A stretch of DNA of 64,000 nucleotides from an uncultured Gemmatimonadales bacterium (GCA_963708135.1 OY970192.1:3872001-3936000), one strand, 5' to 3'; shown: positions 961 to 51,404, counted from the first letter of the stretch. Notes: a model not told the origin generated them from the sequence alone. Numbers and translations are program-made.

Positions 961-1128
961 AGGTTTGGCTGTCGCTTTGGTTTTGGTTTTGGTTTTGGTT
1001 TTGGTTGTAGCTGATCGGCATCGATGTATGTGTCCGAGCTGTACTCGTGTCGAATAGACGCGCGGTACGCATGTACTCCCACCAAACTAAAAACCAAACC
1101 AAAACCACAACCCAAACCAGATTCGACC
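961..1128. repeat. AT-rich element with inverted simple-repeat arms, (TTTTGG)n ... (CCAAAA)n
   Basis: ttttggttttggttttggttttgg at ~976-1006 and degenerate complement accaaactaaaaaccaaaccaaaaccacaacccaaacc at ~1081-1118, around a ~70 bp core. Confidence 0.8.
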
Positions 1129-1146
1129 GACCCTCAGCTCCCGTGC

Positions 1147-1968
1147 TCACCCTTTCACGCCGCCACTCGTCAGCCCCGCGACGATGCGGCGCTGGAACAC
1201 CAGCACGAGCAGCGCGACGGGCACCGTCGCCACGAGGGCGCCGGCCAGGATCTCGCCCCACGGCACCTGGTACTGCCCGCGGAAGAGCGCGATGGCGACG
1301 GGCACGGTGTAGCGCTCGGGGCCGAGCGTGAACGAGAGGGCGAAGAGGAACTCGTTCCACGCGTAGAGGAAGGTGAGGATCGCCGTCGTCGCCAGGCCGG
1401 GCAGCGCGAGCGGCAGCACGATCTCGCGCAGCACGCGCAGGCGGCTGGCGCCATCGACCATTCCGGCCTCCTCGAGCTCGCGCGGCAGCTCGCGGAAGAA
1501 GCCGACGAGCAGCCAGATCGTGAGCGGCATGGCGAAGGTCAGGTACGGCAGCACCAGCCCGGGATAGGTGTCGATCAGGCCGAGCGCGCGCAGCATCAGG
1601 TAGAGCGGCGAGACGATCGCGATCTGCGGGAACATCGAGGCGGCCAGGATCGCGGCCACCAGCACGCCCCGCCCGCGGAACCGCAGCCGGGCGAGGGCGT
1701 AGGCGCACAGCGCGCCGAGCGAGACGGCGAGCACCGTCGTCGCCCCGGCCACGATGAGCGAGTTGCGGATCGGGACCCAGAAGTCGCGCGCATCGAAGAG
1801 CGCACGGTAGTTGTCGAGAACGGGGTGCGGCGGCAGCAGGGCGCCGCCCGGGAGCAGCGCGGCCTCCGGCGCGAGCGAGCCGGCCAGCGCGCGCCAGAGC
1901 GGGACGAGCCCCGCCAGCACCAGCAGGGCGACGACCACGCGGCCCGCCCACTGCCCGGCGCGCCTCAC
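1147..1968 (-). CDS. Carbohydrate ABC transporter permease (MalG-like)
   Basis: EAA motif ELEEAGMVDGAS, AWNEFLFAL, several TM helices. GTG start overlaps the upstream TGA (GTGA). Confidence 0.92.
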   Translation of the reverse strand: MRRAGQWAGRVVVALLVLAGLVPLWRALAGSLAPEAALLPGGALLPPHPVLDNYRALFDARDFWVPIRNSLIVAGATTVLAVSLGALCAYALARLRFRGRGVLVAAILAASMFPQIAIVSPLYLMLRALGLIDTYPGLVLPYLTFAMPLTIWLLVGFFRELPRELEEAGMVDGASRLRVLREIVLPLALPGLATTAILTFLYAWNEFLFALSFTLGPERYTVPVAIALFRGQYQVPWGEILAGALVATVPVALLVLVFQRRIVAGLTSGGVKG

Positions 1969-2867
1969 GCGCGGCCTCCTTCCGTCCGGCCGGCGCCGAG
2001 CAGCCGGATGTAGACGAGCGCCAGCACGAAGGTCACGAGGAAGATCAGCACCGATAGCGCGGAGCCGTACCCGAAGCGCAGGTCCTGGAGCAGCGAGTCG
2101 AACGCGAGCAGCGACACGGGCTCCGTCGCCGTCCCGGGGCCGCCGCCCGTGAGCACGTAGACCAGGTCGAACACGCGGAACGCGTCCAGCGTGCGGAAAA
2201 CCAGCGCGGCGAGGATCGCCGGCCGGAGGAGTGGCAGGGTGATCTCCCTGAGCTGCCGCCAGGCGGGGGCGCCGTCCACGCGCGCGGCCTCGTAGAGCGT
2301 GGGGTCGATCGTCTGCAGCCCCGCGAGCAGCAGCAGGGCGACGAACGGCGTCATCTTCCACGTGTCCGCGAGCACGATCGGCACCCAGGCGGCCAGCGGG
2401 TGGATGAACCAGACCAGCGGCCGGTCGAGGATCCCCAGCCGGAGCAGCACCACGTTGGCCAGGCCCGTCCGCCCCTCGAACATGAAGCGCCACACCAGCC
2501 CCGCCACGACCGTCGGCACGGCCCACGGCAGCAGCACGGCGAGCCGCACCACGCCGCGGCCGCGCGTGACGCGGTGCATCCCGAGCGCGAGCACGAGCCC
2601 GAGCGTCATCTCGAGCGTCACGGAGACCGCAGTGAAGGCGAGCGTGTGGAGGAGCGCCGCCCGGAAGCGCGCATCGCCGAGCGCCTCGGCGTAGTTCGCG
2701 AGCCCGATGAAGGGCCGGCCGCGCCAGGGCATGCGCAGGTCGTGGAGGTGCAGCGACTCCCATACGGTGCCGGCGAGCGGCACGAAGGCGACGGCCGCGA
2801 GGACCACGAGCGCCGGCGCCATGAGCGTCCACGCGAGCCCGGCCTCCCGCGTGCGCCGCGCGCTCAC
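1965..2867 (-). CDS. Carbohydrate ABC transporter permease (MalF-like)
   Basis: FIGLANY, LYEAARVDGA, FRVFDLVYVLTGGGP. GTG start overlaps the SBP stop. Confidence 0.92.
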   Translation of the reverse strand: MSARRTREAGLAWTLMAPALVVLAAVAFVPLAGTVWESLHLHDLRMPWRGRPFIGLANYAEALGDARFRAALLHTLAFTAVSVTLEMTLGLVLALGMHRVTRGRGVVRLAVLLPWAVPTVVAGLVWRFMFEGRTGLANVVLLRLGILDRPLVWFIHPLAAWVPIVLADTWKMTPFVALLLLAGLQTIDPTLYEAARVDGAPAWRQLREITLPLLRPAILAALVFRTLDAFRVFDLVYVLTGGGPGTATEPVSLLAFDSLLQDLRFGYGSALSVLIFLVTFVLALVYIRLLGAGRTEGGRA

Positions 2868-4693
2868 GGCGCCCGACCGCAGGGCCAGCGCCTGCCGGCT
2901 GCCGGCGCGCTCATGGGACCCCCGCCCCGGAGTGGGTGAGTGGGGGAGTGGGCGATGCGGCCGGCGGCCACGGCCCGTCCGGTCCCCATACGCGGCGACG
3001 ATGCCGGCGCGCGCGAACGAACGCCGGCCAGCGTGACGCGGCCCGGAGGGCTCCCGCATGCACTCGCGGCGCCCCGACGCTCGCGAGGCCCGGCCGCTGC
3101 CCGGGCGAGAGGAAGCCGGCCCGGGGTCCCCCACTCTCCCACTCCCCCACTCCCGGCCGCAGACCCGCCGCCCCCCGCGGGCGCCGCGCACTCATGGGAC
3201 CCCCGCCCCGGAGTGGGTGAGTGGGGGAGTGGGAGATGCGGCCAGCGGCCACGGCCCGTCCGGTCCCCATACGCGGCGACGATGCCGGCGCGCGCGAACG
3301 AACGCCGGCCAGCGTGACGCGGCCCGGAGGGCTCCCGCATGCACTCGCGGCGCCCCGACGCTCGCGAGGCCCGGCCGCTGCCCGGGCGAGAGGAAGCCGG
3401 CCCGGGGTCCCCCACTCCCCCACTCCCCCACTCTCCGCCGCACAACCCCGTCGTCCGCAGCAGCTCCCGCATGGCCGCGGCGGCATCGTGCAGCGCGGCG
3501 GCGGGCTCCGCCTGGCGCGTGAGCGCGCGGTGCAGGCGCACCTGGAGCAGCTCGGAGAGCTGCGTGTAGACGGGCGTCACGGGCCGGGGCACGGCGTGCT
3601 CGATGATCGCGCGCGCTGCGTGCGGCGGGAGCGGCAGCACGGCGGCCAGGGCGCTGTCCTCGAAGAGCGCGGGCCGGGTCGGCAGCTCTCCCACCGCCGC
3701 GGCGCGCTCCAGCATCTGCGCCGGCGCGGTCAGGTACGCGATCAGCGCGTAGGCCGCCGCGGGGTGCCGCGACCAGCGGTTCACGGCCAGCTGTGCCCCG
3801 CCGAGCGCGGCGGTCGCCCGCCCGCCCGGCGCCGCGGGCATCGGCGCCACGGCGAAGCGCCCGGCCACCTTCGACTTCGCGGTGTCGTCGAGCAGGGCGT
3901 ACGCATAGGGCCAGTTACGCATCAGCGCGGCGCGCCCCTCCTGGAACGCCAGACGGCTCTCCTCCTCGTGCCAGGTCAGCGCCTCGGGCGGCACCACGCC
4001 TTCGCGCCAGATCTCGTCGCGCATCTCCGTGAGCGCGCGGATCGCCTCCGGCGAGTCCACCACCACGCGCCCGGCGCGATCGAGGATCCGGCCGCCGTAC
4101 CCGCCCAGGTATTCGAGGAACACCGTCACCAGCCCCTCGTAGCGGGCGCCCTGCCACACGAAGCCGAGCGGCCCGCCCCGGCGCTGCGCTGCGGCCGCGT
4201 CGGCGTCGAGCTCCGCGAAGGTGCGCGGCGGCGTCGCCATGAGGTCGGTCCGCCAGTAGAGCATCCCCACGTCGACGAACCAGGGTAGCGCGTAGACCCG
4301 GCCCGCCCACCGGTCCGCCGCCACGGCCTGGGGGAAGAAGTCGGCCGTGGCCGGACGGAAGCGGTCCAGCGGCAGGATCCACCCCGCCGCCGCGAACTCC
4401 GGCGTCCACACCACGTCGAGCTGCAGCACGTCGGGCTCGCGGGCGTGCGCGTTCAGCCACTGCACGTAGAGCTGGTGCCGCGTGTCCGCGGCGTCCGGCG
4501 TGGGCCGCAGCCGCACCTCGAGCTCGGGGTGCAGCCGCTGGTAACGGGCGAGCTGCCGCTTCAGGAGCTCGGCCTCCGTGCCGACGGCGCTGCCGGAGAC
4601 GGTGAGCACCGGGCGCCCGGCGGGCGCGGCGCGCCGGCAGGCGGCGGCCGGCAGCGTCGCCAGGAGAACGAGCAGCGCCGCCGCCGCCCTCAC
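2864..4693 (-). CDS. Sugar ABC transporter substrate-binding lipoprotein with a repeat-derived C-terminal tail (~190 aa)
   Basis: Lipobox-like PAAAC, PDVLQLDVVWTPEFA, ALMRNWPYAY, RPVTPVY. Typical domain ends near 3450; the ORF then reads through two repeat copies. Confidence 0.85.
   Translation of the reverse strand: MRAAAALLVLLATLPAAACRRAAPAGRPVLTVSGSAVGTEAELLKRQLARYQRLHPELEVRLRPTPDAADTRHQLYVQWLNAHAREPDVLQLDVVWTPEFAAAGWILPLDRFRPATADFFPQAVAADRWAGRVYALPWFVDVGMLYWRTDLMATPPRTFAELDADAAAAQRRGGPLGFVWQGARYEGLVTVFLEYLGGYGGRILDRAGRVVVDSPEAIRALTEMRDEIWREGVVPPEALTWHEEESRLAFQEGRAALMRNWPYAYALLDDTAKSKVAGRFAVAPMPAAPGGRATAALGGAQLAVNRWSRHPAAAYALIAYLTAPAQMLERAAAVGELPTRPALFEDSALAAVLPLPPHAARAIIEHAVPRPVTPVYTQLSELLQVRLHRALTRQAEPAAALHDAAAAMRELLRTTGLCGGEWGSGGVGDPGPASSRPGSGRASRASGRRECMREPSGPRHAGRRSFARAGIVAAYGDRTGRGRWPHLPLPHSPTPGRGSHECAAPAGGGGSAAGSGGVGEWGTPGRLPLARAAAGPRERRGAASACGSPPGRVTLAGVRSRAPASSPRMGTGRAVAAGRIAHSPTHPLRGGGPMSAPAAGRRWPCGRAP
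2910..3436. mobile_element. Tandem pair (281 bp period) of MITE-like elements with inverted (GAGTGGGG)n/(CCCCACTC)n arms
   Basis: Near-identical copies start at 2910 and 3191; each has a gagtgggtgagtgggggagtggg left arm and a cccactc-repeat right arm. Mobility is inferred. Confidence 0.7.
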
Positions 4694-5190
4694 TCCGGCG
4701 GTCCGCCGAGCAGCGGCACCGGGTCCGCGGCGTGGCCCCAGCGCAGGATCTCGAAGTGCAGGTGCGGGCCGGTGGCATCCCCCGAATGCCCGGAGAGCGC
4801 GATGACCTCGTGGCCGCGCACCTCGTCGCCGGTGCGCACCTTCAGCGCGGAGAGGTGGCCGTAGACCGTGGCCAGGTGGGGATTGTGCCGCAGGATGACG
4901 ACGACGCCGTAGCCGCGCATGGTGCCCGCGTACTCGACCCGGCCGCCCTCCATGGCGTGGACCGGCGTGCCGTCCGGCACCGCGATGTCGATCCCCCGGT
5001 GGATCTCCGGGCTCCAGCCGCGGAAGCGCAGGCCCCAGGGCGAGGTGACCGGCCCCTCGACCGGCCAGCGCGGAATGGCGCACGCCGCGAGCAGCGCGAG
5101 CGACACCACCGGCAGCAGCCGGCGCGCGGCCGGCCCGGCCCGGCGCCCGCGCCGGCGCAGCCACCCGCCCGCGGCGAGCGCCGCCCGCAC
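4690..5190 (-). CDS. M23 family metallopeptidase, probable lipoprotein
   Basis: HRGIDIA (HxxxD), YGHLS, TGPHLHFEI (HxH); LLAAC lipobox. Start uncertain (5190 or 5226). Confidence 0.88.
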   Translation of the reverse strand: MRAALAAGGWLRRRGRRAGPAARRLLPVVSLALLAACAIPRWPVEGPVTSPWGLRFRGWSPEIHRGIDIAVPDGTPVHAMEGGRVEYAGTMRGYGVVVILRHNPHLATVYGHLSALKVRTGDEVRGHEVIALSGHSGDATGPHLHFEILRWGHAADPVPLLGGPPE

Positions 5191-5234
5191 GGCCGGCCCG
5201 CTGCATCCCCGGGCGCCAGCCGCCACGCGCCGCC

Positions 5235-7262: not shown

Positions 7263-7587
7263 GCTTCCTCCCCTCCAGCGTTTGATCGGCGGCCCGCGGC
7301 ACCGGCGCGGCCCGCCTCGCCGGACCGGCCAGGCCGGTCCGTGGCCTCAACTTGAGGCGCCCCCGACCCCCGTGCAACGTCCCGGCACCCCCTGCGGGGA
7401 GGCGCACGCCCCTTTCCATGTCGCCTCCGGGGAGGGGCGACCGCGGTACGGGACGTGCTGCGAGGAGCCGCGCCGCCGGGGCTGCCTGTACGGCCGCCAG
7501 GGCGAGCCGCGGGATGGGTGATGCTCGCCGCCCGCCCGCTTTACAGGATCCGGGGAATCCCTTATCCTTTCGAGCTTTGCCCCCACA

Positions 7588-8574: not shown

Positions 8575-8641
8575 CATCCCGCGGTCGACGCACCGGGGTC
8601 GAATCGCCGCTGGCAGGGGTCCCCTGGAACCGGAGGCAGAA

Positions 8642-9601: not shown

Positions 9602-9622
9602 GGGCACGCCCGCGTACGGCCA

Positions 9623-10283
9623 GAGCGGGGGAGTGGGGGAGTGGGGGATGCGGCGGGCTTCGGCGCCCTCGCGTCACCCGGCGCGGCGCCGATGGCGGCG
9701 GGACGCCGGTCCGGCGAACCGCCGCTGGGTCGCGGCCGCGACCCAGCGCTCGAGGCCCCGCATCCCGGCGCCCCCCGAACCCACGCGCCGCGGCGCGGCG
9801 AGGACGCGAGCCCCCGGACCCCGACGAACCCCCGGACCCGCGCGGCGCGGCGAGGGGCGCGAGGCACCCCGACGAACCCCCGGACCCGCGCGGCGCGGCG
9901 AGGGGCGCGAGGCACCCCGACGAACCCCCGAACCCGCGCGGCGCGGCGAGGGGCGCGAGGCACCCCGACGAACCCCCGAACCCGCGCGGCGCGGCGAGGG
10001 GCGCGAGGCACCCCGACGAACCCCCGAACCCGCGCGGCGCGGCGAGGGGCGCGAGGCACCCCGACGAACCCCCGAACCCGCGCGGCGCGGCGAGGGGCGC
10101 GAGGCACCCCGACGAACCCCCGAACCCGCGCGGCGCGGCGAGGGGCGCGAGGCACCCCGACGAACCCCCGAACCCGCGCGGCGCGGCGAGGGGCGCGAGG
10201 CCGGGAGATCGGAGAGGCGAAAGCGGCGTCCGCCCGGGGTCTCCCACTCTCCCACTCTCCCACTCTCCCACTCTCCCACTCCC
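9623..10283. mobile_element. Element of the same GAGTGGG-arm family, containing a 48 bp tandem array
   Basis: Left arm gagcgggggagtgggggagtgggggatgcggc; right arm gcccggggt(ctcccact)5. Confidence 0.7.
9821..10201. repeat. Tandem repeat, 8 x 48 bp, no spacers
   Basis: ccgacgaacc starts at 9821, 9869, 9917, 9965, 10013, 10061, 10109 and 10157; a degenerate copy lies just upstream. Confidence 0.95.
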
Positions 10284-12379: not shown

Positions 12380-12577
12380 ATCGGCTCCAGGTAACGAATG
12401 ACGGCGGGTGAAGGTGGGGTGAGGGCGAGGGCGGGGAAACTCCACCCCCACGCTCACCCCCACCCGCTGTTCGTCTCGTTGCCGGATACACTCGGCCGCC
12501 CCGTTCGCTCTTCGCGCGGGGCGGCAGATCGGGCGCGTCGCCTGCGGCGCACCCGGGGGCGGGCCGAGCGATCCGGA

Positions 12578-12932: not shown

Positions 12933-13537
12933 CTACTGGAGCAGGTAGACCAGGGTGAAGATGATGATCCAGACGATGTCGACGAAGTGCCAGTAGAGCC
13001 CCGCGATCTCGACCGTCAGCGCCTTGGACTGCCCGAGCTTCCCGCGCCACGCCTGGACCCATAGGCTCAGCAGCCAGATCACGCCCACCGTCACGTGCGC
13101 GCCGTGGAAGCCGGTCAGCACGAAGAACGTGGAGCCGAACAGGTTCGTCTGCAGGTGCAGCCCCTTCTCCCAGAACTCGGTGAACTCGAACGCCTGGAAG
13201 CCGAGGAACGTCGCCCCGAGCAGCGCCACCATGAAGAGCCACAGGAGCGTCTGCTTGCGGTTGCCCCGCTGCACCGCCGCGAGCGCGAGCACCATGCAGA
13301 GCGAGCTCATCAGCAGCACGAACGTGCTCACCGAGGTGAGCGGGATGTTCAGGATGTCGTGCGGATGGGGGGGAGGACGCTCTGGTGCTTGTACACCATG
13401 TACGTCGAGATCAGCGAGCCGAAGAACAGCGTCTCCGACCCCAAAAAGATCCAGAACCCCAGCTTGAAGGTGTTCAGCCCCGTCGAGGTCTCGTGCTCGA
13501 GAACGCTCTCCGCCGGGAGTGCCGCCGCGTGATCCAT
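12933..13537 (-). pseudogene. ctaE: Cytochrome c oxidase subunit III, frameshifted in a C7 run (real mutation or sequencing error)
   Basis: N-half MDHAAA...KLGFWIFLGSETLFFGSLISTY and C-half PHDILNIPLTS...TGFHGAHV...GLYWHFVDIVW are in different frames; the switch is at G7, 13367-13373. Confidence 0.88.
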
Positions 13538-13559
13538 GTTCCTCGCTTCGCTCGTCACC

Positions 13560-13611
13560 GCAAGCGCAAAAGCAAGCGCAAACGTCATTTGCGCTTGCCC
13601 TTGCGCTTGCG
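13560..13611. repeat. Short inverted simple-repeat hairpin between ctaD and ctaE
   Basis: gcaagcgcaaaagcaagcgcaaa-cgtca-tttgcgcttgcccttgcgcttgc. Confidence 0.8.
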
Positions 13612-31851: not shown

Positions 31852-32945
31852 CGCGCGAGCACCTCCTCCACCGCCCCGAGCACCGCTTCCGTCTCCGCCA
31901 CCGTGTGGTCCCCCATGTGGCCGATCCGGATCGTCGCCTCCTTCAGCGCGCCGTACCCCGTGGCGATCGTATAGCCCCGCTCCTTCACCGCCCGCACCAC
32001 CTCCGGTCCCGTGCGCCCCTCCGGCACCCTGATGCAGGTCACGCACGGCGAGCGGTAGCCCGCCGGCGCCAGGACCGAGACGTCCGCCTTCTCCCGCACC
32101 CGCTCGACCCACGACCACGTCGTCTCCGCCATGCGCATGTGCCGCTCCCAGCGCCGCTCGATCCCCTCCTCGTTGATCCGCCGCACCTGCGCCGACAGCG
32201 CGTACAGGAGCGAGACCGCCGGCGTGTTCGGCGTCTGGTTCTTCTCGATGTTCTTCTCGAACTCCAGGAAGTCGAAGTAGATGCCGCGGTCCTTCTTCGA
32301 TGCCGCCCGCTCCAGGATCGCCTCGTTCGCGACGCCGAACGCGAGCCCCGGCGGCAGCGCCAGCGCCTTCTGCGAGCCCGTCAGCGCGAAGTCGAGCCCC
32401 CACCCGTCGGTCTCCAGCGCGCCGCCGCCCACGCTGGACACGCCGTCCACCAGAAGCACCACGTCGCCGGCCGCGTGCACCACCTCCGAGATCTCCCGCA
32501 CCGGGTTCAGCACCCCGGTCGACGTCTCCGAGTGCACCACCGTCACCGCGTCGTAGATGCCGCGGCGGAGCGCCTCCTCCACCATCTCCGGCGTGTTCAC
32601 CTCGCCGAACGGCACCTCGAGCGGGTCCGCGTCGAGTCCCGTCGCGTTCGCGATCCGGTGGAAACGCTGGCTGAACGCGCCGTTCACCAGCGACAGCACC
32701 CGCCGCCGCGCGCCGTTCCGGAGCGCCCCCTCCATGAGCCCCGTGGCCGAGGAGGCGGACAGGTACACCGGCCGGCGCGTGCGGAAGATCTCCTTCAGCC
32801 CCGGCTCGATGCCCCCGATCAGCGCCTCCATCTCCTGGACCCGGTGTCCGATCATGGGCTGCGTCATTGCCTCGAGAATCTCCGGCAGGACCTCGGTCGG
32901 GCCCGGCAGGAAGAAGCGGCCGAAAGCGGGGTGCGTCGTCGACAT
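31848..32945 (-). CDS. Class V PLP aminotransferase (AGT/serine-pyruvate type), probable phosphoserine aminotransferase
   Basis: LPGPT, HSETSTG, VDGVSS, TGSQKALALPPG, RIGHMG; stop overlaps the serA start. Confidence 0.85.
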   Translation of the reverse strand: MSTTHPAFGRFFLPGPTEVLPEILEAMTQPMIGHRVQEMEALIGGIEPGLKEIFRTRRPVYLSASSATGLMEGALRNGARRRVLSLVNGAFSQRFHRIANATGLDADPLEVPFGEVNTPEMVEEALRRGIYDAVTVVHSETSTGVLNPVREISEVVHAAGDVVLLVDGVSSVGGGALETDGWGLDFALTGSQKALALPPGLAFGVANEAILERAASKKDRGIYFDFLEFEKNIEKNQTPNTPAVSLLYALSAQVRRINEEGIERRWERHMRMAETTWSWVERVREKADVSVLAPAGYRSPCVTCIRVPEGRTGPEVVRAVKERGYTIATGYGALKEATIRIGHMGDHTVAETEAVLGAVEEVLAR

Positions 32946-33031
32946 GATTCGTTCTCGCGGGTGTCGAAGGGGCGGCGGCTGGCTACGGGACGAAAGTGGC
33001 GGCGGACGAGTGGACCGGCAAGGCTGCCCTC

Positions 33032-33835
33032 GGGTTGAAGGGGCAGGTTCAGGTGGAGGGGCAGGTTCAGGTGGAGGGGACAGGGGCAGAAACGGAAGGC
33101 AGGAGGCATGTTCAGGGGGAGGTGTAGGTGTATGGGGCGCAAGGTTGGCGCGTTCCGCCATGGTGGCGCCCGGGGATGGGCCAAGAATCGGGGCATGGCT
33201 TCTCTTCTCGACCACGACCGACTGGAGGTCTACCACTACGCCCTCCAGTTCGACCGGCAGGCGAATGTCCTGCTGCGCACCGCCGGCGTCCGCGGCGACA
33301 AGCGCGACCAGCTCCGCCGGGCAGCGGCCTCGATCGTCCTCAACATCGCAGAGGGGGCTGGAGAGTTTTCGCCCAAGGACAAGGCCAGGTTCTATCGCTA
33401 TGCGCGTCGCTCCGCCACGGAATGCGCTGCCGTCCTCGACCTCCTGATGAACGACTATGGCCTGGACCCCGCGGCCCTCGCCGAGCCGCGGAAATCGCTG
33501 TCCAGCATCATCGCGATGCTGGTGCGGCTACTCCAGACGCTGGATCCCACCATTCCCCGCCGCACCGGAAAGCGGCCACCCCCTTCAGACCCCTGATCCC
33601 GACCCCCTGAACCTGCACCTCCCCTTCCACCTGAACCTGCCCTCTGCCTTCTGTACCTGCCCCTGCCCCTCAACCTGCCCCTGCCCCTCAACCTGCCCCT
33701 GCCCCTCAACCTGAACCTGCCCTCTGCCTTCAGTACCTGCCCCTGCCTTCTGTACCTGCCCCTGCCTTCTGTACCTGCCCCTGCCTTCAGTACCTGCCCC
33801 TGCCTTCTGTACCTGCCCCTCCCCCTCAACCTGAC
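33032..33835. mobile_element. Cassette: four-helix-bundle gene between inverted low-complexity arms
   Basis: Left arm ggggcaggttcaggtgga x2 plus variants; right arm has its complement tccacctgaacctgcc (33626-33641) plus 18 bp x3 and 19 bp x5 arrays. Mobility is inferred. Confidence 0.7.
33195..33596 (+). CDS. Four-helix-bundle protein (23S rRNA IVP / bAvd-like family)
   Basis: HDRLEVY, DQLRRAAASIVLNIAEG, RFYRYARRSATEC. Confidence 0.92.
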   Translation: MASLLDHDRLEVYHYALQFDRQANVLLRTAGVRGDKRDQLRRAAASIVLNIAEGAGEFSPKDKARFYRYARRSATECAAVLDLLMNDYGLDPAALAEPRKSLSSIIAMLVRLLQTLDPTIPRRTGKRPPPSDP

Positions 33836-33844
33836 CCGCGCCGT

Positions 33845-37736: not shown

Positions 37737-38178
37737 ACTCTCTCTCGCGGAGACGCGGAGGTTCGAGGCTCCGAGGGATTCGCTCAGAGGTTGTGGACCA
37801 TGCGCTTGATGCCGTCCTTCAGGAAGGCGGTGTTGAAGTTGAGCAGGAGGCCGGCAGTAGGTCGAGCAGGCGCAGGTAGGTGAGGAGCTGCCGCTGGTGA
37901 ATCGGCGCGATCGCCTTCACCGATTTCACCTCGACCACTTCGCGGAGTCGCGGAGAATTCGTTCAAACCGCGCTCGCGCCCGCCCGGCGACCTTACCGGG
38001 GCGATCCATGATTGGGAATCAAACATCCCGCCCGCGCCCCAGCCCCTGACTCGCGCCTCCAGGCTTTCGCCTTTGAAATGGCGTCCCTCTGCGCCTCCGC
38101 GAACCTCCCGCGGCTCCGCGAGAGAGAGCCCGACGACGAACCCTCCTCGCGCAAGGAAGCCCCTCCGCGAGAGAGAGT
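37737..38178. mobile_element. Decayed cassette with 16 bp perfect terminal inverted repeats and (CGCGGAG)-type arms
   Basis: actctctctcgcggag (37737-37752) / ctccgcgagagagagt (38163-38178); internal ctccgcg/cgcggag repeats. Confidence 0.65.
37784..37938 (-). pseudogene. GxxExxY (PD-(D/E)XK-like) protein, C-terminal fragment with a frameshift
   Basis: Own translation: VVEVKSVKAIAPIHQRQLLTYLRLLD / frameshift / GLLLNFNTAFLKDGIKRMVHNL*. N-terminal half missing. Confidence 0.85.
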
Positions 38179-38267
38179 CCGACAATGCCGGCACCCTGGA
38201 TCAGGATGCGCATGGGCCGCCGCTGGTGGTCCCGCCGCAAACGGGCGCGCCAAGGGCGCGGCCCGCG

Positions 38268-38546
38268 CTACACCCGCCTGCCCCGCGAGATCAGGCCCAC
38301 CACCAGCGCGAACAGCGTCGCGCCGAGGACGGCCCAGATCACCGGAAAGGCCTGGCCGCCCACGTTGATCACGAAAACCGCCGGCAGCCCGGCGGCCCGC
38401 GCGATCCACTGGCCGAGCAGCGCACCGATGAAGCCGACGACGATGGAGACCAGGCACCCGCCGAGCGAGTAGCCCGCGATCGACTGGCCGATCGCCCCGC
38501 ACACCGCGGCGATCAGCAACAGGATGAGGAAACCGAGCAGCGTCAT
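38268..38546 (-). CDS. GlsB/YeaQ/YmgE (transglycosylase-associated) membrane protein
   Basis: GGCLVSIVVGFIGALLG, IWAVLGATLF. Confidence 0.88.
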   Translation of the reverse strand: MTLLGFLILLLIAAVCGAIGQSIAGYSLGGCLVSIVVGFIGALLGQWIARAAGLPAVFVINVGGQAFPVIWAVLGATLFALVVGLISRGRRV

Positions 38547-38684
38547 GTCCGCCCTCCCTTCTGCGCCCATGGACCAGCCGCCCCCCGTCGCAAGCCGCGG
38601 GCCCGACCGAGCGACCCCCCGCCCCCGGACCGATTCCTGCAGCCTTCCTCCGCAGCGAACGAACGCACCCACCCCGGAGGGGCC

Positions 38685-38957
38685 ATGCCTACGGATGCCG
38701 AGAAGCGACGCAGGCGCCGCGAGATCCGGCTGCTCCAGAGCGAGTCCACCTGGCTGCAGAAGGCGCTCTTCGCGCTCAGGAAGGCGGAGGCCGCCCACGA
38801 AGACGTGGCGGACCTGCGCGAGGACGATGACGGCGAGCCGATCCGCCTCGCCGTCGATGGCCGCGAGCTGGAGCTGGAGCCCCTCGAGGACGCCATCGAG
38901 GAGCGCGCCCAGATTCTGCTCGACAACGTGCGCCGCATGCGCCGCGAGCTCCGCTAG
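38685..38957 (+). CDS. Small hypothetical coiled-coil protein
   Basis: GGAGG RBS; MPTDAEKRRRRREIRLLQSESTWLQKALFAL; GC3-rich codons. Confidence 0.7.
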   Translation: MPTDAEKRRRRREIRLLQSESTWLQKALFALRKAEAAHEDVADLREDDDGEPIRLAVDGRELELEPLEDAIEERAQILLDNVRRMRRELR

Positions 38958-39203
38958 CGCCGCACGCCTTTTCGATCGGTCCGGCCCGAGCCGCCCCGCC
39001 GCGCGCCCCATAGGGGTGCGGAGGAATGGTGCCGCATCTCGAGCAGCCCGCTGCCGCGCCCCCATTGACGACACATGCCCGCGACCGAGATCTTCCCCCA
39101 TCCACGGCACCCGTCCGGCCACTGTCATCGAACCCGCGCGCCCTCGCCCACCGCGCCCCCGCGCCACCCGGGCCCCAGCGCGCACCGCCCCGGAGACCAC
39201 CCC

Positions 39204-40732
<1,529 letters not shown>

Positions 40733-40736
<4 letters not shown>

Positions 40737-42053: not shown

Positions 42054-42174
42054 GGCGCGCGGCGACGTGGCCAGGCCCCCGCCGCGGCCGGCTTGCCCGC
42101 CACCCCCCGCAACCCCATCCTTGCCCGCGTCCCCCTGGAGCCATCCGATCCCCGCGGGCGAGGGAGGTAGCCGA

Positions 42175-44212: not shown

Positions 44213-44568
44213 CGCTGCTCCGTCTGCGCGCCGCGGCACAGCCCGACGATGTGCCAGAAGACGTCGCGCACCTGCTCCACCGGCAGCCCGGCCTTTCGCG
44301 CGGCCGCCGCCGCGCGCCGGACCACCGCCGCCTCGCGCGCGGGATCGAGGGTCGGCAGCCCCGCCGCCCGCTTGGCCGCCCCCGCGGCGCGGGCCAGGCG
44401 GAGCCGCTCCCCGAGCAGCGTGACGAGCTGCGCGTCGATGGTCTCGATCCCTTCGCGGATGAGGTTGAGCGCGAGGGCGTCCGGCCCCGGGACGGACGCC
44501 GCCTCCCGGGAGGCGCGCACCGGGGCCTTGCCGTTGGAGCTCGCGGATCCGCCCGCGCGCGCGCTCAC
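44209..44568 (-). CDS. Chorismate mutase (AroQ type)
   Basis: [31 protein letters not shown]. Confidence 0.88.
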
Positions 44569-45620: not shown

Positions 45621-45647
45621 GGGGCCTCCTGCTGCTCGGGCGGACAC

Positions 45648-45683
45648 AAAAAAAGCGGCCCGTGGGACTCTCCCACGGGCCGC
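45648..45683 (-). terminator. Intrinsic terminator of the aro attenuator
   Basis: Minus strand gcggcccgtggga-gag-tcccacgggccgc-TTTTTTT: 13 bp stem and U7, 28 bp upstream of aroF. Confidence 0.92.
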
Positions 45684-45706
45684 CGCTCACTCGAAGCTCT
45701 CGTCTG

Positions 45707-45793
45707 CTACACGCGCACACGCGAAGCTTCACGGCCCGTGGCATGGGTCGCGTAGCTAAAGTAATAGGCGTAGAAGCGCGGCTGCGTGTGCAT
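45707..45793 (-). CDS. Phe/Tyr-rich attenuator leader peptide (28 aa)
   Basis: MHTQPRFYAYYFSYATHATGREASRVRV*; 6 of codons 7-14 are Phe or Tyr. Confidence 0.88.
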   Translation of the reverse strand: MHTQPRFYAYYFSYATHATGREASRVRV

Positions 45794-45801
45794 GATCGAA
45801 A

Positions 45802-45831
45802 TGGATAGCCCCCACCCCACCGCCCTGTCAA
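45802..45831 (-). promoter_or_regulatory. Sigma70-like promoter of the aro leader
   Basis: Perfect TTGACA (45831-45826), 18 nt, weak TATCCA; leader ATG follows 8 nt later. Confidence 0.6.
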
Positions 45832-46065
45832 GGGGGCACGCTCCGGCAGCCGGAGCACTCCGCCTTCGCCCGCCGCACCGCGCCAGTGCCTCGAGACGCG
45901 CCTCCCAGAGCGGATCCGCCACCGCCCCGGAGCAGCCGCAGGCCCTCCCGCCGTCCCCCGAATCCGAATCCCAGCGGCGCGGCCCCGGAATCCAGCGGCG
46001 CAGCCCCGGAATCCGAATCCGTTAGTTCCCGTACCGGGCTTCGACTTCCGTGATGGCGGGGCGCC

Positions 46066-46235
46066 GTGAACTCCCCACGCGTACCCCGGCGCGGAGACGG
46101 TTGGGGAGTTGACCGCGCTATTCGTCGTCAACTCCCCAGAGGTCGCAGCTCCACGGGAACGATTGGGGACTTTACCGCGCTATTCGCAGTCAAGTCCCCA
46201 ATCGTCGATTCCACGGCCAATGCGTGGGGACTTTC
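46066..46235. repeat. REP/REPIN-like cluster of alternating inverted TGGGGA(G/C)TT motifs
   Basis: Hairpins tggggagttgac/gtcaactcccca (46102-46138) and acgattggggactt/aagtccccaatcgt (46159-46205), plus outer half-sites. Confidence 0.8.
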
Positions 46236-46291
46236 CTCTCCTCGCGGGCCCGGTACGTCGGTGCGGACGGCGCGCGTCCGACACAACCGGC

Positions 46292-47278
46292 CTAGAGGTC
46301 CAACGACAGCTCGAGCCCCCAGTACGTCTCGTGCGTGAGGAAGAACTCGCCCATCGGCGAGGGGCCGTGGAACCAGCGCGCGATGAGGCGGCCGGAGCGG
46401 CCGGCGCCGTCGTCGAGCCGGATCCCGCCCGCGGCGGACCATGCGCTGCCCCACGTCGTGCGCTGCACGGACTGCCAGTCCAGCCCGGCTACGACGCCGA
46501 AGCGCGGGCTCGCACCCGGCGGGTGCCACTCGCCATCGAAGCCGGCCTGCGCCTGCCAGCGATCCTTCCGGCCGTTCACGAGCAGGTCGCGCTCGGTCTC
46601 CGAGTAGAAGATCCACTCGCCGCCCGCGTAGGCACGCAGCGGGCCGAAGCTGCGCGCGCCCGTGAAGTCGAGGCCGTCGCCGCCGAGCTCGATGCGCCGG
46701 GCGTTGTTGTTCTGCATGAGCTCGTCGCCGAGGTGCGAGCTGCGGTGGATCAGCCGCCACCGGTAGGCCCACGGCCCGCGAGAGAGCTCGAGCGGCGCGG
46801 CCACCATCCAGTCGCTGGCCGTCAGGTCGCGGCTGAGCTGCTCGATGCGGAACAGCGCGCGTACGCCGACCTCGATGCCGAGCGTCATCTCGCCGTCATC
46901 CCACCGCCGCAGCCGCATCGCGGCGAGCTCCTGCCCCAGGTTCACGACGGCGTCCACTTCATGGGCCGAAGCGGCCGAGTCGGGCAGGTCGAAGCGCGGC
47001 CGCTCGCGCGGCGTGTGCGAGAGGATGTCCGTGTCCACGAGCGCGCCGGCCAGCCTTGGCTCGTGCGGATCGGCGAGGATCTGCCGGAACGCGTGCTCCC
47101 GCGGGAACCACTGGAACTGGCCCGAGTGCTGCGCGCGCGCCGGCGCGGCTGCGGCCAGGAGCGTGGCGAGCGCGGCGGCGCCCGCGAGCGGGCGGAAGAG
47201 TCGCGGGTGCCGGGGAGGCGCGGAAGGGCTGGGTCTCGGCATGGCCGGCATGCTACTACCCGGCCGGGGAGGGCACAA
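46292..47278 (-). CDS. DUF1207-like secreted / outer-membrane protein
   Basis: FRQILADPHEPR, LTASDW, HRSSHLGDE, beta-strand C-terminus; start uncertain. Confidence 0.75.
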   Translation of the reverse strand: MCPPRPGSSMPAMPRPSPSAPPRHPRLFRPLAGAAALATLLAAAAPARAQHSGQFQWFPREHAFRQILADPHEPRLAGALVDTDILSHTPRERPRFDLPDSAASAHEVDAVVNLGQELAAMRLRRWDDGEMTLGIEVGVRALFRIEQLSRDLTASDWMVAAPLELSRGPWAYRWRLIHRSSHLGDELMQNNNARRIELGGDGLDFTGARSFGPLRAYAGGEWIFYSETERDLLVNGRKDRWQAQAGFDGEWHPPGASPRFGVVAGLDWQSVQRTTWGSAWSAAGGIRLDDGAGRSGRLIARWFHGPSPMGEFFLTHETYWGLELSLDL

Positions 47279-47308
47279 GCGGGGCGGGGGACGCCTCGGA
47301 GCGCCCGA

Positions 47309-49075
47309 TCAGGCGGACGCCCCCGCGAACGGCAGGTAGACCGTGAACCGGGTGCCCGCGCCGGGCGTGCTGTCAACGTCGATCGCGCCATCGAAGTGGC
47401 GCACGATGCCGTAGGCCGTGGCCAGCCCCAGGCCCGTGCCCTTGCCGGCCGGCTTGGTCGTGAAGAACGGCTCGAAGATGCGCGTGAGCACCTTCCGGTC
47501 CATCCCGGTGCCGGTGTCGCTCACCTCGAGGGCGACGTAGCTCGGCGCGCGCCGCTCGCCCTCCGAGCCGTCGCGTGGCACCGCGGTCTCCGGCGCCCGG
47601 TAGGTGCGGAGCGTCAGCGTGCCCCCCTGGGGCATGGCGTCGCGGGCGTTCACGGCGAGATTCAGGATCACCTGCTCGAGCTGCCCCGGATCGGCCATGA
47701 CCGGCTGGCTCTCGGCCGCCAGCGCGGAGACGAGCTCGATGTGCTCGCCGATGACGCGCCGCAGCATGAGCTCCGTCCGCCGCGTCACCGCGTTCAGGTC
47801 CACCACATCGGCGCCCGCCGGCTGCTTGCGGCTGAAGGTGAGGAGCTGCCGGGTCAGCTCTGCGGCGCGGGCGGTGACGCGCCGGATCTCGAGCAGGTCC
47901 TCCTGCGCCTCCTCGCCGCCCGCCATTGCCATCTCGGCGTGCCCGCTGATGGCCGTGAGCAGGTTGTTGAAGTCGTGCGCGATCCCGCCGGCCAGCCGGC
48001 CGAGCGCGTCCATCTTCTGCGACTGCCGGAGCTGCGCCTCGAGCTCCAGTTCGGAGGTGATGTCGCGCCCTACCGCCACGTAGCTCAGGGGCTTCCCCGT
48101 CCGGTCGCGAACGCGTGAGATGCTCGCGTACTGGTCGTAGAAAGAGCCATCCTTGCGCCGGTTCACGAAGTGGGAGCGCCATACGTCGCCGCGCTCGAGC
48201 ACGTCGTACATGCGACGATAGAACGCATCGTCGTGGCGGCCGCTCCTCAGGATCCTCGGCGTCTGCCCCATCGCCTCCTCGCGCGTGTAGCCGGTCACCT
48301 TCTCGAAGGCCGGGTTGACGTAGCGGATGGTGCCATCCAGGTCCGTCACCACCACCACCTCGCCGGACTGCTCGACGGCGCGGCCGAGCAGGTCCGACTC
48401 CCGCCACGCGCGGTGCAGCTCCGAGAGGTCCGTCACGATCGCTAGCGTGCGTGGCCCCTCCTCCGTCTCGACCGGGCTCAGCGAGATGGAGACTGGAATG
48501 CTCTCTCCATCCTTCCGCTGCGCCGCAAGCGAGAGCGGCTCGCCGAGGGAGCGCGCCGTAGGGCTGGCCTCGTACTCCTGGCGCTGCGCGACGTGCTGCC
48601 GCCTCGCCGCCGGCGGCACGAGCAGCTCGATGCTCCGGCCGCCGAGCTCGCCCGCATCGTAGCCGAGCATCCGCTCGAGCCGGTCGTTTACGAACACCAT
48701 CCGCCCGCGCTCGTCCACCAGCACCACGCCGTCCGCCATGGCGTCCAGCACCTCGTGCAGCCGGCGCCGGCCCGCGCGCGCGCTGCCGTCCAGCACCGCC
48801 CGGCCGAGCGGGCGCGCCACGAACAGGTACAGCAGCGGCCCCGCGACCAGCGTCAGGAGCGCGGCATCCACGAGCGCCCTGGTGACCATCGGCAGCGGCG
48901 GCAGGCTCGCGAGCAGCAGCATGCTGACGAGCTCGGACGCCGCGACGATGACGAGCGTCGCGAGTAGCGCGCGCAGCGCCGCCGGCGTCCTCCAGAGGGA
49001 CGCGGTCGGGCTCGTGCCCGGTGGGCCGGGCGTCCCCTCCGTGGGAGCGCCCGGCGGCGTCTTCAGTGGTTGCAA
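47309..49075 (-). CDS. Membrane-anchored PAS-PAS sensor histidine kinase
   Basis: Two TM helices, two PAS domains, GIAHDFNNLL H-box, NARDAM, DTGTGM, FFTTK, GTGLGL. Confidence 0.93.
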   Translation of the reverse strand: MQPLKTPPGAPTEGTPGPPGTSPTASLWRTPAALRALLATLVIVAASELVSMLLLASLPPLPMVTRALVDAALLTLVAGPLLYLFVARPLGRAVLDGSARAGRRRLHEVLDAMADGVVLVDERGRMVFVNDRLERMLGYDAGELGGRSIELLVPPAARRQHVAQRQEYEASPTARSLGEPLSLAAQRKDGESIPVSISLSPVETEEGPRTLAIVTDLSELHRAWRESDLLGRAVEQSGEVVVVTDLDGTIRYVNPAFEKVTGYTREEAMGQTPRILRSGRHDDAFYRRMYDVLERGDVWRSHFVNRRKDGSFYDQYASISRVRDRTGKPLSYVAVGRDITSELELEAQLRQSQKMDALGRLAGGIAHDFNNLLTAISGHAEMAMAGGEEAQEDLLEIRRVTARAAELTRQLLTFSRKQPAGADVVDLNAVTRRTELMLRRVIGEHIELVSALAAESQPVMADPGQLEQVILNLAVNARDAMPQGGTLTLRTYRAPETAVPRDGSEGERRAPSYVALEVSDTGTGMDRKVLTRIFEPFFTTKPAGKGTGLGLATAYGIVRHFDGAIDVDSTPGAGTRFTVYLPFAGASA

Positions 49076-49118
49076 GGAATGCGGCTCATCCGGAAAAGGA
49101 AGAAGATCTACGGTGATC

Positions 49119-51404
49119 TCAGTCGGCTTCGGCGCCGGCCTGCCCGACCAGCGCCTCGCCCCCCGGGGCCTCCTCCTCGACCCCGGCCTGCACGGCGGCG
49201 AACCCCGCCGTCTCGACCGTCCCGCCCCGCAGCACCCGGATCGCGGAGTACTTGAACTCGGGGATCTTGCCCCACGGATCCAGCTTCGGGCTGGTCAGGA
49301 AGTTGGCCGGCGCCTCGGCGTAGCAGAACGGGAGGAACACCGCGCCGTCCGGTACGGCGTCGTCGTGGCGGGCAATGGCCACGACGTGCCCGCGCCGCGA
49401 CTCGAGCGTCACCGCCTCCCCGGCGGTGAGACCCATCCGCTCCATCATGAGCGGGTTCAGGCTGGCCATCGGCGCCGGCTCGAGGGCGTCGAGGACCGCG
49501 GCGCGGCGGGTCATGGCGCCCGTGTGCCAGTGCTCGAGCAGCCGGCCGGTGATCAGCACGGTCGGGTACTCGTCGTCCACCGGCTCGCCGGCCTCCTGGT
49601 AGTCCACGGGCACCAGCTTGCCGCGGCCGCTGGGCGTCGGGAACCGCTCCGTGAACAGCACCTCGTCGCCCGGATCGCCGACCTCGCGGCAGGGATACGT
49701 CACCGCGTGCTCGCGCTCCAGCCGCTCCCACGTGATGCCGTGGTAGCTCGGCATCGCCTGCCGCATCTCCTCGAAGACATCGGCCGGGCCCGCGTAGCCC
49801 CAGTCGAGGCCCAGCCGGCGCGCGAGCTCCTGGATCAGCTCCAGGTCCTGGCGCGCCTGCCCTGGCGGATCCAGCGCCCGCCGCCCCAGCTGCACCCGCC
49901 GGTCCGTGTTCGTGAACGTGCCCGTCTTCTCCGCGAACGCCGTGGCCGGCAGCAGCACGTCGGCGAAGCTCGCCGTCTCCGTAAGGAAGATCTCCTGCAC
50001 GACCAGGTGCTCGAGGCGCGCGAACGCCTCCCGCACGTGCTGCACATCGGGGTCCGACATCGCGGGGTTCTCTCCCATGATGTACATGCCCTTGATGCGC
50101 CCGGCCTTCGCCGCGTGCATGATCTCCACGACCGTGAGCCCGGTATTCGGATCGAGCCCGGGGCGGTTCCAGAGCGCCTCGAAGCGCGCGCGGGCGGTGT
50201 CGCTTTCCACGTTCTGGTAGTCGGGGTAGACCATCGGGATGAGCCCCACGTCCGACGCGCCCTGCACGTTGTTCTGGCCCCGCAGCGGGTGCAGCCCCGC
50301 GCCGCGCCGGCCGACCTGCCCCGTCACCAGCGCCAGCGACACCAGGCAGCGCGCGTTGTCCGTGCCATGCACGTGCTGCGCTATACCCATCCCCCAGAAG
50401 ATCATCGAGTTCCGCGACGTGGCGTACAGCCGCGCCGCCGCCCGGATCGTCTCCGCGTCGATTCCCGTGACCGCCGCCATGGCCTCCGGGCTGTAGGCCT
50501 TCACCAGCCGCTTCAGCTCCTCGAAGCCCTCCGTCCGGCTCTCGACGAACGCCGGCTCCGTCAGCCCCTCGCCGATGATCACGTGCAGGAACGCGTTCAG
50601 CAGCGCCACGTCCGTGCCCGGCCGGAACTGCAGCGAGTGCGTGGCCAACCGCGCCATGTCCGTGCGCCGCGGGTCCATCAGGATCAGCTTCGCGCCCCGC
50701 TCGATCGCGTTCTTCATGAACGTGGCCGCCACCGGGTGGTTCACCGTCGGGTTGGCGCCCACCACGATGAAGCAGTCCGCGTACTGCACGTCCGCCACCG
50801 GGTTCGAAACCGCCGCGGAGCCGACCGTCTCGCCCAGCGCCGCCACGGACGAGGCGTGGCACAGGCGCGTGCAGTGGTCCACATTGTTCGTGCCGAACCC
50901 CGCGCGCACCAGCTTCTGGAAGAGATACGCCTCCTCGTTCGAACCCTTGGCCGACCCGAAGCCGGCCAGCGCGCCGCCGCCGTGCGTGTCCCGTATGCGA
51001 CGCAGCCCGTCCGCCGCCCGGTCGAGCGCCTCATCCCACGTCGCTTCCCGGAACGCCTCGAGCGGGTGCTCCGGGTCGACCAGGTTATTCGCGTCCTTCG
51101 CCACGCCCTCGCGCCGGATGAGCGGCACCACGAGCCGCTGCCGGTTGTGCACGTAGTCCCAGCCGAAGCGGCCCTTCACGCACAGCCGCCCGTGGTTGGA
51201 CGGCCCCCAGCGGCCGGTGACCTGCCGGATCCGGTTGTCCATCACCTGGTAGGTCACCTGGCAGCCCACGCCGCAGTACGGGCAGAGCGACGGAATCTCG
51301 GTCACCCGTCCCTTCCCGCTTTCGCTTTCGCTTTCGCTTTCGAATCCGTTCGCGACCCGCGCCAAAAGCGAACGCGAAACCGACTCTGCCTTCTGTTCAG
51401 CCAT
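49119..51404 (-). CDS. fdhF: Formate dehydrogenase alpha subunit, Mo/W-bisPGD catalytic part (Cys ligand)
   Basis: CPYCGVGC, LCVKGRFG, DHCTRLCHAS, LRGQNNVQG, TGRLLEHWHTG, IPEFK. Confidence 0.92.
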   Translation of the reverse strand: MAEQKAESVSRSLLARVANGFESESESESGKGRVTEIPSLCPYCGVGCQVTYQVMDNRIRQVTGRWGPSNHGRLCVKGRFGWDYVHNRQRLVVPLIRREGVAKDANNLVDPEHPLEAFREATWDEALDRAADGLRRIRDTHGGGALAGFGSAKGSNEEAYLFQKLVRAGFGTNNVDHCTRLCHASSVAALGETVGSAAVSNPVADVQYADCFIVVGANPTVNHPVAATFMKNAIERGAKLILMDPRRTDMARLATHSLQFRPGTDVALLNAFLHVIIGEGLTEPAFVESRTEGFEELKRLVKAYSPEAMAAVTGIDAETIRAAARLYATSRNSMIFWGMGIAQHVHGTDNARCLVSLALVTGQVGRRGAGLHPLRGQNNVQGASDVGLIPMVYPDYQNVESDTARARFEALWNRPGLDPNTGLTVVEIMHAAKAGRIKGMYIMGENPAMSDPDVQHVREAFARLEHLVVQEIFLTETASFADVLLPATAFAEKTGTFTNTDRRVQLGRRALDPPGQARQDLELIQELARRLGLDWGYAGPADVFEEMRQAMPSYHGITWERLEREHAVTYPCREVGDPGDEVLFTERFPTPSGRGKLVPVDYQEAGEPVDDEYPTVLITGRLLEHWHTGAMTRRAAVLDALEPAPMASLNPLMMERMGLTAGEAVTLESRRGHVVAIARHDDAVPDGAVFLPFCYAEAPANFLTSPKLDPWGKIPEFKYSAIRVLRGGTVETAGFAAVQAGVEEEAPGGEALVGQAGAEAD

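Follow-up and report, generated by a model that had tools for sequence, protein, structure and literature searches.

Intervening sequences (IVS) of bacterial 23S rRNA, known from Coxiella burnetii (helix 45) and Leptospira, are sporadically distributed elements in which an S23p open reading frame (ORF) lies between terminal inverted repeats; the Coxiella IVS contains tandem heptamers (accessible parts of PMC4990558). The encoded protein belongs to the four-helix-bundle family TIGR02436/PF05635, 18 genes of which are reported from cas loci in the accessible part of PMC3936711. The structural likeness of this family to Avd of the diversity-generating retroelements (DGR) is discussed in PMC10053308, as far as that source is accessible; all five Avd protomers contact an RNA stem-loop, the flipped-out bases of which lie in crevices (accessible parts of bioRxiv 10.1101/2023.10.23.563531). 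An intact gene of the family and a remnant of a GxxExxY gene, each within a cassette bounded by inverted arrays of short tandem units (termed arms), are present in a 64,000-nt stretch of DNA from an uncultured Gemmatimonadales bacterium, which is referred to as the window (positions 3,872,001-3,936,000 of the single 5.45-Mb contig OY970192.1, GCA_963708135.1; the genome is 97.65% complete with 72% G+C).

Long heptamer repeats are known from Xanthomonas (GGGAATC) and Nostoc (GGGGAYT; PMC4692102) and from Beggiatoaceae (TAACTGA; PMC4679880). The accessible parts of PMC4692102 describe the G-rich strand as sense after stop codons and antisense before start codons, count 70 convergent pairs in one genome and give no general link to mobile elements. 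Its supplement contains a run of four GGGAATC units 6 nt past the bccP stop codon and directly before XCC0516; the accessible supplement table lists no downstream partner arm for XCC0516. An initial annotation of the window, made from its sequence alone, described eight loci of one architecture, with a unit that differs by locus, and proposed a selfish or regulatory system in which the fold-back structure and not the arm sequence is conserved, so that inserts could be looped out or processed from operon mRNA. This interpretation is partly supported.

Matched arms around four-helix-bundle genes

The genome contains 12 TIGR02436 matches, comprising ten intact genes and one split by an insertion sequence (IS), and two intact GxxExxY genes. 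One fixed strict score for paired arms (inverted and unit-matched) was applied to cargo loci and controls alike. Seven of the ten intact genes of this genome and 27 of the 30 best loci of the phylum have matched inverted arms, whereas among the controls the score is reached by 0/53 shifted windows and by 16 genes out of 1013 matched for size; across phyla, where 5 of 80 loci were removed for short flanks, the remaining full-flank loci pass in 45 of 75 cases and the controls in 0/145, which brings the shifted windows to 198, none of them passing. Arrays picked independently on each side match in 69/83 loci (permuted mean 3.1), and matched arms are also found at 24 of 39 loci on viral contigs. 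The tie between four-helix-bundle genes and armed loci is upheld and strong. For GxxExxY genes it is weaker as measured, with 8/30 loci passing (one from this genome) and 0/50 controls, their units being irregular and many of them missed; the periodicity detector is blind to irregular units, that is, to most GxxExxY arms and to the 10-11-bp arms at genome position 4,811,497.

Four-helix-bundle genes are carried by 93 of 135 same-class genomes. In the other intergenic regions of this genome, no decayed four-helix-bundle sequence was detected beyond the 12 known matches (E <2). The split copy, at genome 2,369,211-2,370,796, lies between GCAAG-type arms and is disrupted by an IS that looks IS4-like by eye and is flanked by a short direct repeat. 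GxxExxY was considered as an obligatory mobilising nuclease and rejected, many genomes having four-helix-bundle genes and no GxxExxY match (13 and 0 in G034, for example), although draft genomes limit this test.

The product of the window's intact gene scores 61.8 bits against TIGR02436 (cut-off 24; E 6e-17), and its structure is predicted with a pLDDT of 93.6. A fold search with this model returned Xcc0516 (2GSC; TM 0.79), BT_0352 (2RLD; about 0.7) and, weakly, DGR Avd chains (TM 0.63-0.69, E 0.4-0.6), to which sequence identity is 7-10%. The two solved relatives 2GSC and 2RLD have five chains each, and the predicted model shows that the window protein shares the fold of these five-chain members. 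Several arginines and a lysine are among the invariant residues. Because there would be five equivalent sites on such a protein and there are 4-5 units per arm, we infer that the protein may bind the arms.

Period, anchor and placement of the arms

Among 81 scored loci the unit has a period of 7 in 65, of 8 in eight, of 6 in seven and of 9 in one, with a median of about 4.5 units per arm. The phased heptamers share an anchor G (64/65) preceded by A or G (63/65), with loose preference elsewhere. On the protein tree the period changes eight times, compared to 15.6 times after shuffling, and by eye the motifs track clades across phyla; in an independent test with metagenome homologues of the window's protein, the period was 6 in 31 of 33 scored loci. 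Period and anchor are thus shown to be linked to the protein clade: 7 with the A/G-G anchor in the main clade, 6 in the clade of the window's protein and 8 in others. The proposal that structure is conserved and arm sequence is not finds no support here.

An orthologous site in one genus (that of locus L155), examined in 50 of 61 genomes, points the same way. The unit there is N-N-N-C-W-R-A-G; in the 5' arm, 88/89 units have the A and the G. At the three variable positions, agreement of the two arms is 0.51 for arms of one locus and 0.45 for arms of different loci (18/20 loci, p 0.02). By their sequences these arms look more like repeated inverted recognition sites than like a duplex held to pairing at every position. 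No strand-specific wobble was detected: G-U and A-C mismatches, counted on the sense strand of the cargo, stand at 120:107 (p 0.43). Stop triplets within the units were tried as a targeting rule and dropped (29/65 vs 24.6 shuffled, not significant).

With a crude ORF rule and no shuffle control, a sense stop codon precedes 54 of the 73 loci that have enough flank, within -10 to +12 nt in 39 cases; convergent stop codons lie within 12 nt of the cassette in 22/27 cases, start codons are less tightly placed, and 11 cassettes are antisense within a host operon, as is the one at 33032 in the window. RNase III was not found in this genome by three profiles, and it was found in only one of 135 same-class genomes (at least 90% complete) vs 14 of 15 from other classes, so that an enzyme present almost everywhere seems to have been lost throughout the class. 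As the system thrives where RNase III is not found, classic processing is unlikely to be the general reason for the arms.

A transposase motif lies beside 19/80 metagenome loci of the window's clade, and 14/14 ORFs examined by Pfam are DDE-type transposases. Genes of this hexamer clade (L305-L376) are often neighbours or passengers of IS5-, IS630- and DUF772-type transposases, with at least three independent associations; at L346 and L358 the transposase stop codon is immediately followed by the armed cassette, which is presumably inside the IS end, judging from known IS end motifs. No transposase adjoins the copies in the window. Hitch-hiking with IS would be a route between genomes and leaves the targeting step unexplained.

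Filled, empty and solo forms

All eight loci of the initial annotation, with nine arm pairs, are present (Table 1). For each pair the direct-orientation alignment scores far below the inverted one, and ensemble pairing exceeds that of dinucleotide shuffles on both strands (z -1.9 to -7.2, weakest at 51316 and 9623). Loaded, decayed and empty forms do coexist: one pair encloses an intact gene, one a remnant, and the others are gene-less. Gene positions are those of a codon-model caller, checked against NCBIfam and Pfam profiles.

Table 1. Armed elements of the window, with their genes and the alignment of their inverted arms (matches/aligned)
Feature	Position	Strand	Inverted arm alignment	Remarks
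Cargo-less cassette	962..1120	.	28/33	Arms 962-1010 (GGTTTT-type hexamers) and 1081-1120 (complementary) around a unique ~70-bp core
Two tandem 281-bp cargo-less octamer-armed (GGGRGAGT) copies, 97% alike	2905..3442	.	24/27 and 22/23
Octamer-armed cargo-less element	9623..10283	.	22/26	Occupies gap between convergent stop codons 9601 and 10305 (thrC)
Short decayed GGTGAG-type hexamer pair	12403..12467	.	16/19	Between cox subunit IV and thrB
Minimal GCAAGC/GCTTGC hexamer hairpin	13559..13611	.	21/23	Starts 2 nt past cox1 stop; z -7
Loaded cassette, 5' arm	33036..33130	+	75/91 (with 3' arm)	GGGGCA/GGTTCA/GGTGGA hexamers
Intact four-helix-bundle gene (TIGR02436/PF05635)	33195..33596	+		133 aa; antisense to serB-like/aminotransferase operon
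Loaded cassette, expanded 3' arm	33604..33837	+		19/38-bp higher-order hexamer repeats; end 8 nt from serB-like stop (33845)
Decayed GxxExxY cassette	37737..38178	.	29/31	CGCGGAG-type arms 37737-37777 and 38089-38178
GxxExxY C-terminal gene remnant	37858-37938	-		Between the CGCGGAG-type arms
GCTTTC/GAAAGC hexamer pair	51316..51387	.	17/19	Linker dividing Fe-S N-terminal part (51404-52090 -) from FdhA (49119-51305 -)
Solo hexamer arm CCCCTG/GCCCGT	49..174	.		Absent from initial annotation; in frame inside ABC ATPase gene
Solo C-rich hexamer arm CCCTCA	39240..39329	+		Absent from initial annotation; 5' end of predicted M20 peptidase ORF 39204-40736

The placement at gene junctions within operons, which had been noticed for several loci, holds for some of them; the element at 2910 lies in an ORF, that at 51316 can be read in frame as part of one, that at 9623 is located between convergent genes, and the cargo at 33032 is antisense to its operon. 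The cassette at 962 sits between a sugar permease (1147-1968 -) and an ABC ATPase (start 900 -), a junction of 6-60 nt in five of six assessable relatives, the sixth having a different hexamer cassette there. The sugar-binding-protein ORF (2864-4693 -) reads through both octamer copies, which lie within its 3' end, so that its first stop is 579 nt past the conserved end vs 9-84 nt in eight relatives. The core of the 9623 element contains eight near-identical tandem 48-bp copies (9818-10201), with no full-length copy elsewhere in the genome. The remnant at 37858-37938 covers TIGR04256 profile positions 71-97 only, at 23.3 bits against a cut-off of 35 (E 2.7e-4; Pfam PDDEXK_3, E 1e-5); its cassette contains no full-length GxxExxY ORF and has gene-less kin at genome position about 4,413,500. 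The alpha subunit of formate dehydrogenase (49119-52090 -) is in two parts here, and a single ORF encodes it in 11 of the 16 relatives that could be assessed. An ATG that overlaps the TGA upstream gives in-frame reading through the cassette into FdhA. This linker repeatedly draws repeat cassettes; a split relative has a different hexamer cassette there, and an in-frame run is seen in one relative. The units of the 962 and 51316 cassettes each also border a four-helix-bundle gene elsewhere in the genome (an intact one in the former case), that of the 12403 pair borders two, and most of the commonest array units of the genome are likewise found beside one of its own four-helix-bundle genes.

The two solo arms both lie in predicted coding sequence. 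That at 49..174 forms an in-frame insertion of ~45 codons in the ABC ATPase, directly past the conserved GSPAMN motif. At 39204-39329 (+) the CCCTCA run would give, on translation, a Thr-Leu repeat as the hydrophobic part of a signal-peptide-like N-terminus of the M20 peptidase, possibly a recruited arm. Reading frames within repeats are provisional, as single indels are possible in the assembly: the gene for cytochrome oxidase subunit III (12933-13537 -) is in two frames, broken at a G run near 13370, probably by an assembly indel. Contigs assembled from short reads of a soil run differ from the window by no letter over 32488-33631 and by one over 37854-39164; as the run is possibly the window's own source sample, this argues solely against an assembly artefact. 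Among the joints listed for these contigs none deletes the 33032 or the 37737 cassette, and contigs cannot show absence. An Rfam scan of the window gave no match. Elsewhere in the genome, 22 predicted tRNA genes are packed into less than 4 kb (5,377,229-5,381,066).

Empty alleles, as had been anticipated, are found in relatives, in comparisons made between genera. At the serB-like/aminotransferase junction, 15 of 17 relatives with both genes in one locus have 191-314 nt between two anchor residues vs 1025 here, and none of the 17 has a four-helix-bundle gene there. The cox1-cox3 junction, judged by eye in 24 assessable of 29 other loci (the weaker matches may be paralogous clusters), has arm pairs of other units in seven, a solo arm in two and no arms in 15, one of which is a plain TGATG overlap. 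Metagenome locus L324 has the four-helix-bundle gene at the methionine-gene junction that also holds the copy of this genome near 3,278,000, with a different unit. The orthologous site in the genus of L155 carries one gene lineage in 21 genomes, another in two and no gene in 27, many of the latter with other hairpins. As filled, empty and other-unit alleles occur at orthologous sites, the same junctions have been lost and reoccupied repeatedly. The gene of this site has a dN/dS of about 0.12 (46 usable pairs), which shows purifying selection on the protein. L166 and L180, from this site, and L011 have a different palindromic repeat, with CCCTCTCC...GGAGAGGG hairpins, at junctions used by armed cassettes.

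Genome-wide, 348 of 2498 intergenic regions contain an array (64 after shuffling). The expected excess of inverted pairing is there, with qualifications: in 116 regions with at least two arrays the first and last are inverted in 36 (permuted mean 13.2, maximum 20 in 200) and neither inverted nor direct in 62, direct pairs are enriched too (18, vs a permuted mean of 4.0 and maximum of 9), and most genomic arrays are unpaired. When the octamer family described below is excluded, inverted pairs are found in 11 of 68 regions (null 2.7, maximum 7) and direct ones in 15 (null 2.1). In 35 of the 36 inverted pairs it is the G-rich arm that leads, and all four gene orientations are represented. GCGGGAT heptamer arms surround three small ORFs at 212,802-214,310, next to a predicted tRNA-Arg.

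One family, that with octamer arms, is gene-less and has been shown to multiply in this lineage only: its pattern has 193 matches in this genome and none in 38 of 40 relatives. The clusters bounded by two arms run from G-arm to C-arm in 39 cases and never in reverse. The cores of the elements are related over megabases; the densest tandem array encloses a four-helix-bundle gene, and both close homologues of this octamer-associated gene bear 8-mer arms. At 539,821-541,445 seven tandem 234-bp octamer-armed elements break queA. Target duplications, which had been looked to as a mark of insertion, were not found at the 39 clusters, where the longest flanking direct repeat averages 4.95 vs 5.17 after permutation (boundaries are set by the pattern and approximate); neither were extra terminal repeats above permutation. 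Local hopping was tried as an explanation of their spread, but the two members are found within 50 kb of each other in just 3 of 35 related pairs, and in 13 of all 406 pairs, which is weak.

Possible explanations and known systems

The explanation we prefer, and hold to be probable if by no wide measure, is that of selfish cassettes without a transposase: their protein binds the arms of its own cassette, and empty copies as well as copies with one arm are left behind. A complete cassette would consist of an Avd-like four-helix-bundle gene with an array of about 4-5 short units on each side, the two arrays being inverted, with a parallel family carrying a GxxExxY gene of nuclease fold. A protein ring with equivalent sites may bind the periodic units in its cassette's arms, the likeliest target being the RNA stem into which these fold, as Avd does with its stem-loop; such binding would explain the fixed spacing, the unit number and the inversion. 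Slippage and copying between arms might homogenise the unit within a locus, and gene deletion could give rise to empty pairs and solo arms. New copies may arise by host recombination or repair at the protein-bound hairpin, which is the weakest step, while allele replacement between orthologous junctions and hitch-hiking inside IS would serve as routes between genomes. The hairpin presumably renders the insert compact and tolerable, and mRNA excision would not be needed.

Several points weigh against this explanation. The strict score is 0 for three of the ten intact genes of this genome, 30 of 75 cross-phylum loci fall below it, just 26 of 58 full-flank metagenome loci of the window's clade pass, as do only a minority of the GxxExxY loci, and in the octamer family solo clusters number 74 out of 113. 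The heptamer motif is weak (4.14 bits vs 3.26-3.6 shuffled). The protein tree is a quick one (126 columns, 56 of 117 forks open, long branches, labels common to kin), and this genome alone supplies six of the seven rows with period 6; agreement of unit and clade is moreover expected from plain co-inheritance of gene and arms. Although the window's own cassette is G-first, the C-rich arm comes first in 29/33 loci of its clade, so arm polarity is not universal. The dN/dS estimate has dS near saturation. No mobilising enzyme was found: reverse transcriptase (RVT_1, PF00078) and Y1 transposase (PF01797; 6/14 control genomes positive) have no matches in the genome, and the octamer clusters are without target duplication.

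That the system has been domesticated by its hosts, with the ring protein as a post-transcriptional regulator and the arms at stop and start codons as its regulon, is judged unlikely. The G-rich arm is on the sense strand after a stop codon in 81 cases, compared with 15 for the C-rich arm, the gene is under purifying selection and the same junctions are reoccupied; a regulator-binding role has been proposed for the TAACTGA repeats of Beggiatoaceae (accessible part of PMC4679880). However, gene presence is near-random on the host-gene tree of the L155 genus (14 changes vs 16.3 shuffled), of the 151 genomes searched in the phylum 51 gave no match to the gene, one copy here is broken by an IS, and neither the lineage-specific octamer burst nor insertions into coding sequence such as queA fit a regulon. 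Slightly less likely again is an mRNA analogue of the 23S rRNA IVS, in which the fold-back is selected and the insert cut or looped from operon transcripts, as the initial annotation had it. All nine pairs fold, stop codons adjoin the arms and start codons are near them, the two arms of a locus match far more often than after permutation, and RNase III cuts the stem of the Coxiella IVS at its first heptamer (accessible parts of PMC4990558); but the enzyme was not found here nor in 134 of 135 same-class genomes, wobble bias is absent, the variable positions barely pair in the L155 genus, the window's cargo is antisense, copies lie in frame in host ORFs, and every gene orientation, convergent and divergent placement included, is used. 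Processing from operon mRNA is not supported; looping without cleavage would be compatible with these findings.

Matched inverted repeats can also originate from quasi-palindrome template-switch mutagenesis. The arms might accordingly be a neutral by-product, slippage making the repeats and template switching making or matching the inverted partner, with the cargo sharing only their history. Homogenised arms and higher-order repeats, the enrichment of direct pairs, the many solo arrays and the lack of a strand bias in mismatches suit this model, which is nevertheless improbable: it fails on the association of arms with genes relative to the 198 controls, on the conserved anchor with variable neighbours, the constant unit number and the clade-linked period, and on the dispersed elements with related cores. 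The least probable of these explanations is retro-mobility, in which the Avd-like ring would hold cassette RNA and recruit a reverse transcriptase supplied in trans to copy it to new sites. Here the likeness to DGR Avd and the docking at stop codons, which suggests a link to transcripts, stand against the missing RVT_1 match despite a lineage-specific burst, and against the finding that an RT motif (by a crude pattern) lies within 2.5 kb at 0/39 viral loci.

If the preferred explanation of selfish, arm-binding cassettes is extended, they may constitute a cross-phylum mobile class without transposase, integrase or reverse transcriptase of its own, in which an Avd-like ring reads motifs spaced by 6, 7 or 8 nt and targets stop-adjacent sites via host enzymes; gene-less derivatives would be the source of much unexplained intergenic repeat content of 6-9-nt units, and the 23S rRNA IVS one copy that landed in rRNA. 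This extension is offered tentatively, as possible rather than probable. It would join three loose ends: the function of PF05635/TIGR02436, a very large family, the origin of ORF-bearing rRNA IVS and that of long 6-9-nt intergenic repeats. Each protein would have its own arms as the proposed cognate ligand, with the clade-specific spacing as a built-in control. The cassettes also explain the apparent membership of family genes in cas loci and in unrelated operons, and this is of consequence for guilt-by-association screens. Contributed by this window are the presence of several unit families within a single genome, the link of period to clade, the weak pairing of variable positions and the class-wide absence of RNase III from profile searches. 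In the openly accessible literature no statement was found that, outside rRNA, genes of this family generally lie between inverted arrays of short units; an earlier description elsewhere is possible.

Among known systems, the long heptamer repeats resemble the present arrays in their units (6-9 nt here, in about four copies), in the G-rich sense strand after stop codons and in convergent inverted pairs. In the accessible parts of PMC4692102 and PMC4679880, however, one unit is reported per genome and treated as a G-quadruplex or regulator site, whereas many units coexist here, several of which, we infer, could not form quadruplexes; a link to the four-helix-bundle family is not made in these parts, and the words "four helix" are absent from those of PMC4679880. 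MITEs (transposable elements of the miniature inverted-repeat type) and passenger-carrying IS share the terminal inverted arms, the dispersed gene-less copies and, in the window's clade, the neighbourhood of transposases; unlike MITEs, the octamer clusters have no target-site duplication, and arm unit number and sequence vary. With DGR the window protein shares the four-helix fold of Avd (4DWL, 8UB7) and, in solved family relatives, the five-chain assembly, but the genome has no reverse transcriptase match and identity to Avd is low.

The octamer family is like REPIN/RAYT systems and bacterial interspersed mosaic elements (BIMEs), as far as the sources are accessible, in that inverted doublets with a spacer occur in many extragenic, lineage-specific copies, with tandem arrays beside a cognate gene; it differs in that the arms are tandem short units and not single palindromes, and the cognate gene does not encode an HUH transposase; PF01797 has no match in the genome. 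With the 23S rRNA IVS, the 33032 cassette has in common a PF05635/TIGR02436 ORF between stem-forming complementary termini, and the Coxiella heptamers (accessible parts of PMC4990558) fit the A/G-G anchor motif found in this analysis. Its flanks are protein genes and not rRNA, though, and the elements described here occupy junctions and ORFs in either orientation, include many gene-less and solo copies and periods of 6 and 8, and occur in a class where RNase III was not found. By the defining features examined, the element family is not an IVS, REPIN/RAYT, MITE or DGR; it is best filed as a real and widespread family, a variant of the ORF-bearing IVS that behaves more like selfish repeats of the REPIN type without a known transposase.

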